From the IMG/VR virus record IMGVR_UViG_2671180724_000020: a DNA stretch of 20,469 nt. The stretch is one strand, 5' to 3'. This DNA is from a virus (taxonomy: Duplodnaviria; Heunggongvirae; Uroviricota; Caudoviricetes). The notes beneath the pieces are model-generated. The model did no database searches. It was not told the origin of the DNA and worked only from the letters and a program-made list of their open reading frames with translations. Shown here one piece after another: positions 7,404 through 11,237 of this stretch. A program made the position numbers and the translations under genes. Numbering within the stretch: the stretch's first letter is position 1; every line of letters starts with the position of its first letter.

Positions 7404-7575
7404 CGTCATCAATACTCGCGTCGCTCTTGAATTTAAGAGCGATGCTCTTTATATCCTCTGAAATTATTACCAGATCACCATATGTTATATTTTTATTATT
7501 GTGCGCAGTGCTTTTTTGTATGAAATCAAGCAATTCACCAATGAGACAAATATGGTAAGCATCACAGTTTTTCAT
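7333..7575 (-). CDS. Small hypothetical protein (80 aa), translationally coupled to the upstream HTH gene
   Basis: Its ATG (7575-7573) overlaps the TGA stop of the HTH-XRE gene in an ATGA arrangement. The track ORF starts 2 codons earlier at a TTG. Confidence 0.5.
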   Translation of the reverse strand: MKNCDAYHICLIGELLDFIQKSTAHNNKNITYGDLVIISEDIKSIALKFKSDASIDDAIYAYLAKIIDGSKIQPLDEPRQ

Positions 7576-8033
7576 GCGCAAGTATCCCCACCTGTTGGTT
7601 TACCAGTTAACAGCCACATCGGATCGCAGCCAAGAATATTTGCCAGTGGGATAAGCATACTGATAGTTGGTTCATACTCTCCGCTCTCCCACTGGATGAT
7701 AATTTCTTCATCGAGATCGAGCAGCCTGGCGAGTTCGGCGGTTGTTAAGCCGCAGGCTTCGCGTTGGGTGCGAAGGTTAACCAGCCAGCTTTCAGGGAAG
7801 GATTGTTTTTGTTGTGCAGGAGAAGCAGCAGATAGAGCATATTCATGGATAAATTCCATTACCTCAATGCCCAGTTCCTTTGAGCGAGCACAATCCAGAA
7901 GATGGAATGTGCGTACAGCACTTAGCAAATTTGCAATATTTAATGCAAAGGAATCAAGTTCTAAGCCCTTAAGCGTAACACAGCCGCAGTTGATAAAATT
8001 AGTTGTTTCTGGAGTTGCTTTTAGTGTCTTCAT
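7572..8033 (-). CDS. HTH-XRE domain protein with an uncharacterised N-terminal domain (153 aa from the ATG at 8033)
   Basis: The C-terminal region (LRTQREACGLTTAELARLLDLDEEIIIQWESGEYEPTISMLIPLANILGCDPMWLL) is a typical XRE-family helix-turn-helix. It is the first gene downstream of the PL-like promoter at 8087-8115. Confidence 0.75.
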   Translation of the reverse strand: MKTLKATPETTNFINCGCVTLKGLELDSFALNIANLLSAVRTFHLLDCARSKELGIEVMEFIHEYALSAASPAQQKQSFPESWLVNLRTQREACGLTTAELARLLDLDEEIIIQWESGEYEPTISMLIPLANILGCDPMWLLTGKPTGGDTCA

Positions 8034-8086
8034 ATATCCGCCAACAATTTTAAATTGAATCAAATCAAGTTATAATTGATGGTGCG

Positions 8087-8115
8087 ATATTATGTTTTGG
8101 GAAACAGGCTGTCAA
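8087..8115 (-). promoter_or_regulatory. Near-consensus sigma70 promoter directed leftward (PL-like early-left promoter)
   Basis: On the minus strand: TTGACA, a 17-nt spacer, then TAATAT. ACTTGAT-type operator-like motifs, matching those in the cI-cro intergenic region, lie near the -10 side (8054-8070) and upstream of the -35 (8123-8128). Confidence 0.55.
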
Positions 8116-8144
8116 GAAAAAATTGATATCGTATATTTCAGGCA

Positions 8145-8168
8145 GAAAAAAAACGGGCAAAGCCCGTT
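8145..8168 (-). terminator. Rho-independent terminator downstream of cI
   Basis: On the minus strand: ACGGGC, loop TTT, GCCCGT, followed by a run of 8-9 T, beginning about 12 nt after the cI stop. Confidence 0.6.
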
Positions 8169-8179
8169 AAAATCAAAGA

Positions 8180-8869
8180 CTAACCAAATCTGTTTATGTT
8201 GAATGGTACTGATGAGATCACTTTAGACTGGATATAAAGCAGAGCTAACCCCTCTTTTTCGATGCTCCATGGTTGATAATTGGGGTTATCAGATAACACC
8301 ATGATTTTGCTTCCAATTTTTTGAAGCCTTTTCACGTAGCATTCTCCATCAAAACAAAATGCATAAATACCATCGCCATCAAAATAAGTTACTGTCTTAT
8401 CAAGAAAAAGAAGGTCGCCAGGTGAGATTGTGGGAGCCATACTGTCTCCTCTGGCGTTACCTATTTCTATATTTTTGAATGCCCGATTTCCAACAAGACG
8501 TCGGGCATATTCAGGATCAAGTTCTATTGAGCGCACTACATCTATCAAGTCACCACGGACATGAGTTCCATCACCGCAACTAAACTCAACATCAAGGACA
8601 TTAAATACGACGCTATCTGTTCTTGTCTGGTGTTTCTCTTGCGAAGAAAAGGTTGGTGAGGAGTCTTCACCTAAGAACCAGGATTGTGGATAACCGCTAA
8701 TCTCTGATAAATGCGCGAGCTTATCACTCCGTGGAAATGTTTTTCCTGTTGTCCAGTACTGCACTGATTGCGCACTCACACCTAACTTGCGGGCCAGTTG
8801 AGCCTGAGTCCATCCTTTTGCTTTCAGCATCGCGGCTATTCGATTTTCCGTGTTTTTGACGTTCTTCAT
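8180..8869 (-). CDS. cI: CI-type prophage repressor (N-terminal HTH, C-terminal S24 LexA-like autopeptidase)
   Basis: The N-terminus has an HTH (GWTQAQLARKLGVSAQSVQYW). The C-terminus has the S24 motifs GDSM (ARGDSMAPTISPGDLLF) and a downstream Lys (YVKRL). Divergent from the cro-like gene across an operator-bearing intergenic region. Confidence 0.9.
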   Translation of the reverse strand: MKNVKNTENRIAAMLKAKGWTQAQLARKLGVSAQSVQYWTTGKTFPRSDKLAHLSEISGYPQSWFLGEDSSPTFSSQEKHQTRTDSVVFNVLDVEFSCGDGTHVRGDLIDVVRSIELDPEYARRLVGNRAFKNIEIGNARGDSMAPTISPGDLLFLDKTVTYFDGDGIYAFCFDGECYVKRLQKIGSKIMVLSDNPNYQPWSIEKEGLALLYIQSKVISSVPFNINRFG

Positions 8870-8875
8870 GACCAA

Positions 8876-9002
8876 ATCCTGTGGGTTTCTTTACAAGGAT
8901 AAATCTTTACTTGATTTTAGTGTATTCGATCCTTTTGCAACTTGCATGTTAATTTAAACTTGATGTATTCTTGATTTATAAAGTTAATATTGGTGCTTTG
9001 TT
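8876..9002. promoter_or_regulatory. Immunity-region operator/promoter region between cI and cro (OR/PR/PRM analogue)
   Basis: 127-bp divergent intergenic region. It holds three copies of an ACTTGAT-type motif (8910-8915, 8959-8964, 8970-8975), an inverted CAAGGAT/ATCCTT pair (8894-8900, 8928-8936) and a TAATAT -10-like hexamer (8986-8991) just upstream of cro. Confidence 0.5.
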
Positions 9003-9275
9003 ATGGAAGGAAATGATTACGACAAACTTCGTGCATTAATTGCGCAAAATGCCATAGCGCGAAATCTTGGTGTGACGCCGCAAGCGGTGAATCAGTGGTT
9101 TTCAAAAAACACAATTCCTGCTCGTTTCGTTTTACGCGTATGTGAAGTAGTTGCATGGAAGGTCACGCCACATGGCTTAAGGCCAGATCTTTATCCTCAC
9201 CCTGAAGATGGAATTCCTGATTCGTTACGCAAAATTTCAAATCCAAGCTTAGCGCACACAGAGGACGAGAAGTGA
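9003..9275 (+). CDS. cro: Cro-like / YdaS-family HTH regulator
   Basis: 90-aa ORF divergent from cI. HTH region (LGVTPQAVNQWFSKNTIP) resembles Cro/YdaS-type regulators of Rac-like prophages. Very short leader. Confidence 0.7.
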   Translation: MEGNDYDKLRALIAQNAIARNLGVTPQAVNQWFSKNTIPARFVLRVCEVVAWKVTPHGLRPDLYPHPEDGIPDSLRKISNPSLAHTEDEK

Positions 9276-9345
9276 TGGTGGTGATATGAGCGAAAAAATA
9301 ACTATTAAATACGATGGGGCAACCATTTCGATTGCCCCAATCACA

Positions 9346-9639
9346 TTAGCGTTCGCTGAGAAGTTGTTGGTAAGCCTTAAAGGATGCGAACTGCATTCTA
9401 CCTTCGGCATTGATTCCAATGCCTTCGCTTGTACACCAGGTGATGAACTCGGCTGTATCCGCTTCAACTTTAATAACTCGTTGCCCGCTTCTTTCGACAC
9501 GCTTAATCAATTTTTCAGCGTCGTGTTTCCACTCGGTGTAACTGTCGGAGAGCACATCAGCATCAGTAAAAATATTTTTGAGCTCATGATACTGAATCGC
9601 ATCGCGAAACCAGAATAAACCAACGGCCTGAACTTTCAT
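9346..9639 (-). CDS. Hypothetical protein (97 aa) convergent with cro
   Basis: Excellent RBS on the minus strand (AAGGAGG 6 nt before the ATG at 9639). The fully overlapping plus-strand ORF 9286-9618 has a weaker start context. Confidence 0.55.
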   Translation of the reverse strand: MKVQAVGLFWFRDAIQYHELKNIFTDADVLSDSYTEWKHDAEKLIKRVERSGQRVIKVEADTAEFITWCTSEGIGINAEGRMQFASFKAYQQLLSER

Positions 9640-9716
9640 GTCGAACCTCCTTTGGTTCTTTTGTTTATAGGGATCAAAAGGATAACTGAAGGAAGGTTCG
9701 GCACCAATAAGTACGA

Positions 9717-10466
9717 ATGTGCGGAATCTTAAAAGAATTTATCCGTAAGGAGATGGCAGTGAACACCGCAATTTTTAACGACAAAGCATCCATGACCAGC
9801 GTTGAGATCGCAGAGCTGGTGGGTAGTCAGCACTCAGATGTTAAACGTAGTATCGAACGCCTGGTTGCTAAAAACATCATCCGGAAACCGCCAATGGCTG
9901 TTTCCGAGAAAATCAATAACTTAGGTTTTAAAGTTCAATATGAGCATTACCTGTTTGAAGGAGAACAAGGTAAGCGCGACAGCATCATTGTCGTCGCACA
10001 GCTCTGCCCTGAATTCACTGCTCGCCTGGTAGATCGCTGGCGTGAACTGGAAGAACAGATCCGTAAGCCAATGAGCGAAATTGAAATGGTTGCTGCGATG
10101 GCTCTTGAAGCCGTTCGCCAACAGAAACGGATCACTCAGGTGGAAGAAAAAGTCAGCCACGTTGCTGAAACAGTCGAGCAAATTAAAAAGGGCACTATTC
10201 GTGAGGGCTATGCCGGATATCGCCAACTGAAAGCAAAAACCGGTTTGTCAGATGATAAATGCCGCAATCTGGTGAACGCCTATCAGATTCCTACAGACAC
10301 CCATGAGTTCATGACGCCGGACGGATTGTTGTCACGTCGCGCAATTGTTGCTGTGGAACCGTTTATGGCTGCTTTTTATCGGGTTATGGAGGAAGCAGAA
10401 CCGCGAGGGACTCGCTGGTATCACCCGAAAATGGGGTTATTTCAGGTTATTGGTTGGCAGCGGTGA
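9717..10466 (+). CDS. Phage regulatory / antirepressor-like protein (Rha/AntA-like N-terminal domain)
   Basis: The N-terminal motif MTSVEIAELVGSQHSDVKRSIERLV matches the short DNA-binding domain of Rha/Ant-type phage regulators. The true start may be the GTG at 9759, which has AAGGAG 6 nt upstream. Confidence 0.65.
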   Translation: MCGILKEFIRKEMAVNTAIFNDKASMTSVEIAELVGSQHSDVKRSIERLVAKNIIRKPPMAVSEKINNLGFKVQYEHYLFEGEQGKRDSIIVVAQLCPEFTARLVDRWRELEEQIRKPMSEIEMVAAMALEAVRQQKRITQVEEKVSHVAETVEQIKKGTIREGYAGYRQLKAKTGLSDDKCRNLVNAYQIPTDTHEFMTPDGLLSRRAIVAVEPFMAAFYRVMEEAEPRGTRWYHPKMGLFQVIGWQR

Positions 10467-10874
10467 AAAAAAGCCGGGAGTAACCCGGCTCACTCAACAT
10501 CAATAACGGGGAGCTGTTTCGCATAAAACGGCTCCGAAACATCCAAGAACAGTTCTAAAGATATCAGCAGCTATATGATCATTTCAAGACCAAATATTGA
10601 TTCTGCAATTTCGGGACGTTACACTGTCTCCGCACCTTATAAAGCGGGTGCCGGGGGTCGCAGCCCGGAATTGTCAACGGCGATATATGACGCGCCAGCG
10701 TCTTTTTTATCGTCCGCGCTCACGCACGCCAGAATTATGGTGGGCTGGGCAGGGGAGCCGAAAGGCTCGCCGGTCTCCGTTGACGCCGGTACTGCGAACC
10801 CTGTTCAGTCTGCCACCAGTGAGTTTCGCAGCTCCGGTGGTGGAAGTTTTCCACAGTCAACGGAGGCTGCCATC

Positions 10875-11237
10875 ATGGCTACTGTCCCAACTTCCCCATA
10901 CCTGAAAATTGAAGTTGTCAACGGCAAGGCCGTTATTTTCTCCCTGCATGTTGCCTGCCACTTTAAGCGAATGCACCAGAACATCGTTGACAAAATCGAG
11001 TATCTGAACTGCTCACGCGAGTTTTTTACCTGCAATTTCATACCGGGTACTTATCACATCTACGGTGACTCCCTGCGTGGTTATTACATCACTCTTGATG
11101 GCCTGATGATGCTTCAGCTTGGGTTAAGTCTGCGCACAATGCGGTACTACGAGAGCTGCATTGAGGCATTCCATGAAGCTGAAACCAGCCTGAATCATAC
11201 AGCTTTCCGCTGTAATCAATGGGAGGTGCGCCCATGA
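10875..11237 (+). CDS. Rha-family-like phage regulatory protein (120 aa)
   Basis: ATG at 10875 preceded by ACGGAGG. The motif AVIFSLHVACHFKRMHQNIVDKIEYL fits the Rha pattern (V.TSL.VAE.FGKRH.NVLRDI). The upstream 300 nt of the track ORF looks non-coding. Confidence 0.5.
   Translation: MATVPTSPYLKIEVVNGKAVIFSLHVACHFKRMHQNIVDKIEYLNCSREFFTCNFIPGTYHIYGDSLRGYYITLDGLMMLQLGLSLRTMRYYESCIEAFHEAETSLNHTAFRCNQWEVRP

Follow-up and report, generated by a model that had tools for sequence, protein, structure and literature searches.

The control region of the cI repressor gene was analyzed in a 20,469-nucleotide stretch of viral DNA (IMG/VR record IMGVR_UViG_2671180724_000020), hereafter called the window, which represents the left arm of an E. 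coli lambdoid prophage. The operator unit in this region is a 17-bp inverted repeat, ATCAAK-N5-MTTGAT (consensus ATCAAG-N5-CTTGAT), which flanks cI on both sides: in the left operator region (OL), at a strong predicted leftward promoter (PL), and in the right operator region (OR), the 133-bp spacer that separates cI from the divergent gene cro. The hexamer CTTGAT, found on the plus strand of the spacer at 8910-8915, 8959-8964, and 8970-8975, is likely to represent the half-site of two-fold symmetric operators that are bound by dimers of the CI repressor, and most likely by Cro as well; we assign this reading a probability of roughly 0.78. The sequences point to a lambdoid CI/Cro operator system of the ordinary kind, of which this would be a new, uncharacterised member.

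A preliminary description made from the same DNA had drawn attention to the three spaced CTTGAT copies in the spacer, and they are present exactly, on the plus strand. It treated them as ACTTGAT-type 11-mers (8909-8919, 8958-8968, and 8969-8979) with similar flanks, which our analysis does not bear out: the flanks outside the hexamer vary and are not conserved in relatives, and CTTGAT is only the consensus half of the 17-bp inverted repeat. Within OR, the sites have a perfect CTTGAT as their right half, or nearly so in OR-C, and a left half that deviates from the consensus in a conserved way, which is why hexamer copies on one strand were what the earlier reading saw. The echo of the motif reported at the leftward promoter was found again, as ATCAAG at 8064-8069 lies within 8054-8070 and TTGATA at 8123-8128 overlaps ATTGAT at 8122-8127. 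A tripartite OR and an OL with a common motif had also been proposed; the divergent cI-cro region, the three operators, and the motif at the strong leftward promoter stood, and the operator half-site and its OL echo had been recognized correctly, with the recognition unit and the third site misidentified.

Statistics and conservation of the 17-bp repeat

Over the whole window, the bare hexamer occurs at chance level: 17 copies were counted on both strands compared with 12.96 expected, and 14 of 100 shuffles reached 17. Three of these copies fall within the 133-bp spacer, a locally high density, and the remaining 14 are spread over ~20 kb. When the spacer was shuffled, some non-overlapping hexamer with at least three different letters reached three copies in 7-10% of the trials, and hexamers using all four letters did so in 0.5-0.7%. 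The hexamer alone is a poor criterion because of its chance-level frequency over the window. A similar frequency of the motif in the rest of the window had been named in advance as an outcome that would speak against operators; this applies to the bare hexamer, whereas the 17-mer is non-random and concentrated in OL and OR. The palindrome analysis that had been suggested for both control regions found 17-bp inverted repeats in each.

The pattern ATCAAKNNNNNMTTGAT, allowing up to two mismatches, has 11 matches in the window compared with 4.17 expected, and none of 100 shuffles reached this number. OL and OR account for six of the 11, which start at 8043, 8064, 8111, 8899, 8948, and 8978. To avoid circular reasoning, a symmetric weight matrix was trained solely on the sites of three distant relatives (Pseudocitrobacter faecalis, Citrobacter youngae, and an Enterobacteriaceae genome; CI 74-79% identical) and then run over the whole 20,469-bp window. 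Its top six scores are the six OL/OR sites. Six sites reached 10 bits or more, compared with 0.83 in block shuffles, and the next-best score after them was 8.8 bits. Weak operator-like 17-mers outside OL and OR were found at 17824-17840 (8.8 bits), 8217-8233 (7.8 bits), and 38-54 (7.0 bits), the first of which is intergenic, upstream of a small open reading frame (ORF) near 18020 and beside a terminator-like hairpin; these three are probably chance matches. A generic repeat finder reported only the OL1/OL2 pair on OL and nothing on OR, the latter because the left halves there are degenerate.

The OL of the three distant relatives contains a perfect ATCAAGTTAAACTTGAT followed exactly 47 bp on by GTCAAGTTAAACTTGAT, which is the same spacing as between 8064 and 8111 in the window, and their OR contains three sites at the relative positions of 8899, 8948, and 8978. 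In a reverse test, IMG/VR was scanned for the exact palindrome, which gave 90 loci. A CI homologue (70-88% identical) is encoded in 55 of these, where the site lies ~115-130 bp past the cI stop codon. The pooled set consisted of 67 CI-bearing loci (CI 70-100% identical) with 38 distinct OR and 45 distinct OL sequences. The motif is exclusively associated with cI-cro loci: the zones on either side of cI (31.8 kb) contain 300 sites scoring 12 bits or more, and the other 547 kb of the 67 loci contain one. Every one of the 38 OR sequences has sites A and B, and site C reaches at least 8 bits (the display cut) in all but three Shiga toxin 2 (Stx2)-type sequences. The gaps between operators hold in all lineages, at 32-33 bp between A and B, 12-14 bp between B and C, and 30-31 bp between OL2 and OL1 (32, 13, and 30 bp in the window); only OL3 and OL1 are close together (4 bp apart), and OL3 is lineage-specific. 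Constant positions amid changing intervening sequence are the signature that would be expected of function.

Related sequences were observed beside a far more distant gene. In IMGVR_UViG_2744054915_000001, ATCAAGTTTAACTTGAT and ATCAACTTAAACTTGTT lie 44 bp apart at 62-122 and precede a CI-like gene (168-1040; 24-33% identical) with the helix VSAQAAQQWEEG. A much more diverged repressor that retains S-A-Q..Q.W may thus recognize the same operator type.

Operator sites, candidate promoters, and a possible switch

The sites, the candidate promoters, and the surrounding genes are listed in Table 1. In relatives, OL1 is a perfect palindrome, either ATCAATATATAATTGAT or ATCAAGTTAAACTTGAT, and it begins 6 nt past the PL -10 in all 12 tabulated loci. 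The distance between OL1 and OL2 is 47-48 bp in 45/45 distinct OL sequences. The hexamers of PL are conserved across lineages: the -35 TTGAC is the outer half of OL2 and the -10 stays TAnnnT, and the spacer between them varies in sequence with its length kept at 17-18 bp. The center of the OL3 candidate is 21 bp from that of OL1, and the site closely precedes the Shine-Dalgarno sequence that serves the first PL gene. Its counterpart is stronger in the phi467 group (ATCAATTTAAAATTAAC, 18.6 bits), and the Stx2 group (-2.8 bits) and Citrobacter-type loci lack it. We also observed GGTG directly 3' of the right half-site of OL1 (TTGAT|GGTG, 8080-8084) and, in many lineages, 3' of OR-C, in which case it also serves as the ribosome site of cro (8992-8995 here); this recurrence could be a coincidence or an extended operator flank.

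Table 1. Coordinates of operator sites, candidate promoters, and other features of the window; bits are weight-matrix scores
Feature	Position	Strand	Sequence or elements	Score or match	Remarks
OL3 candidate	8043..8059		AACAATTTTAAATTGAA	11.0 bits, 6th in window	Weak, lineage-specific
OL1	8064..8080		ATCAAGTTATAATTGAT	0 mismatches; 22.3 bits, rank 1 in window	Covers ~+1 to +17 of predicted PL
PL, predicted promoter	8115..8110 and 8092..8087	minus	TTGACA, 17-bp spacer, TAATAT	10/12 consensus	Predicted start near 8080
OL2	8111..8127		GTCAAGAAAAAATTGAT	1 mismatch; 17.6 bits (4th)	Overlaps predicted PL -35
OR-A	8899..8915		ATAAATCTTTACTTGAT	1 mismatch; 17.9 bits (3rd)	Holds first CTTGAT; covers predicted PRM start (~-3 to +14)
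PRM candidate	8947..8942 and 8924..8919	minus	ATGCAA, 17-bp spacer, TACACT		Predicted start near 8912
PR candidate	8942-8947 and 8964-8969 or 8966-8971	plus	TTGCAT, OR-B as spacer, TGTATT or TATTCT		Predicted start ~8976-8979
OR-B	8948..8964		GTTAATTTAAACTTGAT	2 mismatches; 21.0 bits, rank 2	Holds second CTTGAT; fills candidate PR spacer
OR-C	8978..8994		ATAAAGTTAATATTGGT	2 mismatches; 12.5 bits, rank 5	Degenerate; covers ~+1 to +17 of candidate PR
Integrase gene	75-1361	minus			
First PL-operon gene	7572-8033	minus	153 aa	Pfam HTH_3, 3.5e-11	C-terminal HTH_3
Intrinsic terminator 3' of cI	8152..8168	minus	7-bp stem, then T run		Separates cI from PL
cI repressor gene	8180-8869	minus	229 aa	Pfam HTH_3, 4.9e-08; Peptidase_S24, 4e-17	N-terminal helix-turn-helix (HTH) and C-terminal S24 self-cleaving domain
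cro	9003-9275	plus	90 aa, YdaS/Cro-type HTH	Pfam YdaS_toxin, 1.6e-12 (above curated cutoff); P22_Cro, 7.3e-05	
Two tRNA genes	19472-19544, 19628-19701	plus			3' of DNA methylase gene (18373-19431)

In OR, the TAAA and CTTGAT of OR-A are invariant in the 38 distinct sequences, and its position on the predicted start of the repressor maintenance promoter (PRM) suggests an OR3-like role. OR-B is present in 38/38 OR sequences, 49-50 bp from OR-A and with an invariant CTTGAT half. It abuts the candidate PRM -35, spanning -52 to -36 with its center near -44, and since it also fills the spacer of the candidate rightward promoter (PR), it is presumed to play an OR2-like role. OR-C overlaps part of the cro ribosome site GGTG (8992-8995). 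The corresponding position in relatives, 29-31 bp from OR-B, is occupied by strong sites (ATCAATTATAGCTTGAT, GTCAATTTTAACTTGAT, and ATAAAGTTTAACTTGAT; up to 24.6 bits), and it scores 14.6 bits in phi467 and 3-6 bits in the Stx2 group. The third operator is likely to be this one at 8978-8994, conserved by position.

The preliminary description had instead counted the third CTTGAT copy, 8970-8975, as an operator. The 17-mer that includes it (8959-8975) scored 1.55 bits, rank 24, which is background. The copy is found in 6/38 distinct OR sequences, all of them from the E. coli clade, and is absent from 32/38; in the phi467 subgroup it reads CTTGAA, though the CI recognition helix is identical there. 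It lies between OR-B and OR-C and between the predicted PR -10 and start, in the predicted discriminator region of PR, and is probably not an operator. A direct-repeat operator made of the last two copies (CTTGAT-N5-CTTGAT, 8959-8975) was considered and rejected on account of the same 1.55-bit score and the lack of conservation.

The PRM hexamers, ATGCAA and TAMAMT, stand 17 bp apart in the lineages counted by hand, with unrelated spacer sequences between them, and the distance from the CTTGAT of OR-A to TTGCAT is 32-33 bp in 38/38 OR sequences. The PR candidate is assigned with moderate confidence. All 38 OR sequences contain CTTGCATGT[TC]AATT without change, and by sequence reading a -10-like hexamer (TAnnnT; GATAAT in one lineage) occurs 0-2 nt past OR-B in every lineage. 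The conserved cro ribosome site GGTG (GGAG in Stx2 phages) needs a leader, and PR is therefore expected to start before ~8990. Other assignments of PR were rejected: a promoter modeled on PL, with its -35 in the right half of OR-A or OR-B, and TTAAAC-17-TATAAA both gave a -10 that was inconsistent across lineages, and a -10 inside OR-C left no room for the conserved GGTG/GGAG site.

Two further observations concern these promoters. The invariant CTTGCATG block at 8942-8947 reads as a -35 in both directions, TTGCAT for PR and ATGCAA for PRM, which implies overlapping, mutually exclusive divergent promoters with predicted starts ~65 bp apart. On the minus strand at 8976-9004, in the E. coli clade only, ATAACA, a 17-bp spacer, and TATAAA stand immediately before ATCAAG, which is the third CTTGAT read on the opposite strand. 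The arrangement may represent another leftward promoter-like element within OR; it fails the requirement of the promoter scan for T at the last -10 position.

Taken together, the layout suggests operators that are interleaved with promoters and not packed side by side. At PL, OL2 would supply the -35 TTGAC and occlude it and OL1 would cover the start, so that bound CI would shut the leftward early operon. At PR, OR-B would fill the spacer and OR-C would cover the start and the cro ribosome site, and bound CI would shut cro and the rightward operon. PRM would run leftward from the same hexamer (ATGCAA), where the position of OR-B at the -35 would allow activation, without proving it, and OR-A over the start would give negative autoregulation at high CI. 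Self-cleavage of CI stimulated by RecA, at a Cys-Gly site and with a Ser/Lys dyad, should lift repression.

It is possible, if rather doubtful, that this amounts to a lambda-like switch on different wiring, with spaced operators, sandwiched promoters, a -35 shared by PR and PRM, and no cooperativity between adjacent dimers of the lambda kind. The single 6-bp -35 (8942-8947) would make polymerase binding at PR and PRM mutually exclusive, and OR-B would block PR from inside its spacer while being placed to activate PRM. The gap from the upstream operator to the start operator appears 2-3 bp longer at PRM (32-33 bp) than at PL (30-31 bp), and such an offset would convert a -35-occluding site into a -35-abutting one.

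Which protein reads the sites

Among the 67 operator-bearing loci, CI is present in 67/67, a Cro homologue in 64/67, and a homologue of the left HTH gene (7572-8033) in 11/67. As only 11 of the 67 immunity-module loci have it, the left gene is regarded as a mosaic passenger. The CI helix VSAQSVQYWTTG is conserved, with the family pattern S[AT]Q[ST]V[QV]YWT, and so is the Cro helix [TS]PQAVNQWF, which resembles it. In phage 434, CI and Cro read the same operators, and the likeness of the two helices here fits with both proteins reading the same sites. The CI residues FSCGDG, GDSM, and VKRL are also conserved, with the Cys-Gly cleavage site in the invariant FSCGDG, the Ser in GDSM, and the Lys in VKRL. 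The S24 domain of CI matched UmuD and LexA chains in a PDB search, and since these self-cleavage features are present, induction by the SOS response would be expected.

The strongest competitor, which we nevertheless consider improbable, holds that the three ACTTGAT sites (8909-8919, 8958-8968, and 8969-8979) are asymmetric and represent OR1-3, each a single or direct-repeat unit for CI. Three hexamers do exist on one strand, and the last two are 11 bp, or one helical turn, apart and are both kept in the window and in the Stx2 subgroups of the E. coli clade. However, in the best sites of the window and its relatives the hexamer is paired with an inverted ATCAAK half 5 bp to its left, the flanks of the hexamer vary, and the third copy is changed or missing in most relatives as described above, in contrast to the positionally conserved site at 8978-8994. 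There is an even smaller likelihood that Cro alone binds the sites and that CI recognizes a different element. Cro accompanies the sites nearly as consistently as CI, and sequence alone cannot separate the two; against this stand the alike helices (SAQSVQYW in CI and TPQAVNQW in Cro), as in 434, and the fact that no other repeated element is common to OL and OR. Three site-bearing loci have CI without a detected Cro, with at least one of those contigs ending inside cI.

We attach slightly less weight still to the suggestion that the sites belong to a protein other than CI, either the HTH protein of the left gene (7572-8033) or a host factor such as integration host factor (IHF). The left gene does encode an HTH_3 protein, but its homologue is far rarer at operator loci than CI or Cro, as the counts above show. 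ATCAA is part of the IHF consensus, and its core WATCAA resembles the operator half-site; the full consensus WATCAANNNNTTR, however, matches the window once, at 9911, outside both OL and OR. Least probable of all, at a level we regard as negligible, is that the hexamers recur by chance in AT-rich intergenic DNA or belong to a structured RNA in the cro leader. The shuffles of the spacer and the window show that the bare hexamer taken by itself would allow chance, which is contradicted by the statistics of the 17-mer and its conservation across genera. With regard to RNA, no Rfam family matched OL or OR, and the folding of the OR spacer was no better than that of shuffled sequences (z = +0.72).

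Several points weigh against operators bound by CI dimers as laid out here. The relatives share ancestry and the IMG/VR loci were chosen for one exact OL1-type site; because of this common descent and selection, the locus counts are not independent events. Binding or transcription-start data for this immunity type were not found in the searched literature. The scores would suggest an order of affinity among the sites, but a consensus site need not bind tightest, as shown for the repressor of phage 933W (PMC3317979). The -35 of PR agrees with the consensus at 3/6 positions, the register of its -10 varies by lineage with spacers of 16 to 18 bp, and a -35 shared by PR and PRM, as read here from the consensus, is unusual. 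OR-C (12.5 bits) and OL3 (11 bits) are weak here, and either could be non-functional in this window.

Known switches, genomic context, and meaning

The region resembles lambda in its divergent cI and cro, in a CI made of an HTH and an S24 autoprotease, in 17-bp partly symmetric operators with a consensus and a non-consensus half, in three OR sites with further sites at the leftward promoter beyond cI, and in one site beside the PRM -35 with another on PRM itself. Lambda OR2 is centered near -42 at PRM, and OR-B, at -52 to -36 of the candidate PRM, lies close to this position. The operator sequence differs from that of lambda, and the promoter hexamers lie between the operators here. The spacers between lambda operators are 3-7 bp long. 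Unlike those of lambda, 434, and P22, the operators here are spread out and not adjacent, and PR and PRM apparently share one 6-bp -35. The cI gene has a leader and a Shine-Dalgarno sequence and is not leaderless as in lambda, and the first PL gene encodes an HTH protein and not N. The identity of CI to characterized lambdoid repressors is below 40% (about 40% at most; 37% to HK022 CI), and the only repressor matched in the PDB was the 434 N-terminal domain (E = 0.0095). In the comparison with known immunity groups, which had been recommended for the operators, the repressor and operator sequences gave no match to lambda, 434, P22, HK022, 933W, or CP-933P.

Phage 933W has five 15-bp, closely spaced sites, does not rely on cooperative binding to adjacent sites, and has an occupancy set by the intrinsic affinity of each site (PMC3317979). 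It is likewise a lambdoid switch of Stx phages with fewer than six strong sites; its operator sequence is unrelated, and the CI described here is of a different type, that of long-tailed Stx2a phages. Operators only a few bp apart, which support pairwise cooperative binding in lambda, 434, and P22, were not found here other than the lineage-specific OL3 next to OL1, and the example of 933W shows that lambdoid phages do not all have this feature. In CP-933P, the repressor PaaR2 and a Cro analogue of the YdaS family, shown experimentally to act as such, bind overlapping repeats in the divergent intergenic region over PR and PRM, and an analogue of PL/OL exists (PMC8630535). The Cro analogue belongs to the YdaS family in both systems; in contrast, PaaR2 has no S24 domain, and the CP-933P repeats are 18-bp palindromes with the half-site GTTTAGTAA, four of them equally spaced in 97 bp. 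A Cro site has been modeled for phage 1720a-02 (bioRxiv 10.1101/2025.01.01.630987). This phage was considered as a member of the present family and could not be equated with it, having a 98-bp control region with a different G-N8-G pattern.

The closest relatives are PhiR49_2 of ECOR13, the long-tailed Stx2a phages, and phi467, which have the same immunity module with an identical CI recognition helix and the same OL1, OL2, OR-A, and OR-B; the Stx2 group differs in being without OL3 and in having an even weaker OR-C. The immunity specificity had been described as that of this prophage, but the same type occurs throughout a family with CI 70-100% identical (E. coli, Citrobacter, Pseudocitrobacter, and many IMG/VR contigs). 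CI is 100% identical to that of PhiR49_2 (PV340570), 93-94% to that of long-tailed Stx2a phages (e.g. LC567818), and 88% to that of phi467 (LN997803). When 7500-9700 was compared with phage records, the identity was 98.6% to PhiR49_2 and 78-81% to long-tailed Stx2a/Stx2d phages and phi467. The E. coli B19374 chromosome contains a copy of 8030-9020 with 100% identity, and the segment is carried by 136 of the 5,426 complete genomes of E. coli. No operator features are listed in the fetched annotated stretches of PhiR49_2, Stx2a-type phages, and phi467, and no earlier mapping of the operators came up when the literature was searched for their sequences, for CI operators of Stx phages, and for ECOR13 prophages.

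The start of cI is given as TTG 8875 in the ORF list, and ATG 8869 is preceded by an AGGA ribosome site (Shine-Dalgarno, 8880..8877, minus strand). The stem-loop of the terminator behind cI (ACGGGC...GCCCGT) is present in nearly all related OL sequences. Early-left genes, including an Ea22-like gene, lie between the integrase gene and the HTH gene at 7572-8033, whose product is an HTH_3 protein and not an N-like antiterminator, and whose phi467 counterpart is annotated 'DicA'. To the right of cro are Rha-type regulators, a DnaB-like helicase, and a DNA methylase, the last followed by two tRNA genes (Table 1), which are common in lambdoid/Stx-type prophages. Rfam matches to isrK (58.7 bits, 10632-10708) and C4 antisense RNA (78.8 bits, 10733-10820) stand back to back on the plus strand inside ORF 10575-11237, overlapping its Phage_ASH part (Pfam) just upstream of a Rha-like domain. 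The stretch has the appearance of a c4 antisense-RNA module of the P1/P7 type that controls an antirepressor-like gene and, if this is true, another layer of immunity would lie ~1.7 kb rightward of OR; this 220-aa ORF may not be genuinely coding in its N-terminal part.

The spaced, promoter-interleaved layout would be a modest variation on lambda in an otherwise ordinary CI/Cro switch. The analysis provides a testable operator map for an immunity type that is carried by the 136 E. coli genomes mentioned above and that is also the type of the long-tailed Stx2a phages. In O145:H28 phages, both the efficiency of induction and the output of Stx2 correlate with the CI type; the study, which typed the related Stx2a-phage repressors, described the molecular basis as unknown (bioRxiv 10.1101/2024.03.06.583675). 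The operator positions, together with the weak sites OR-C and OL3, are a first step toward explaining such differences in induction and predicting cross-immunity between prophages.

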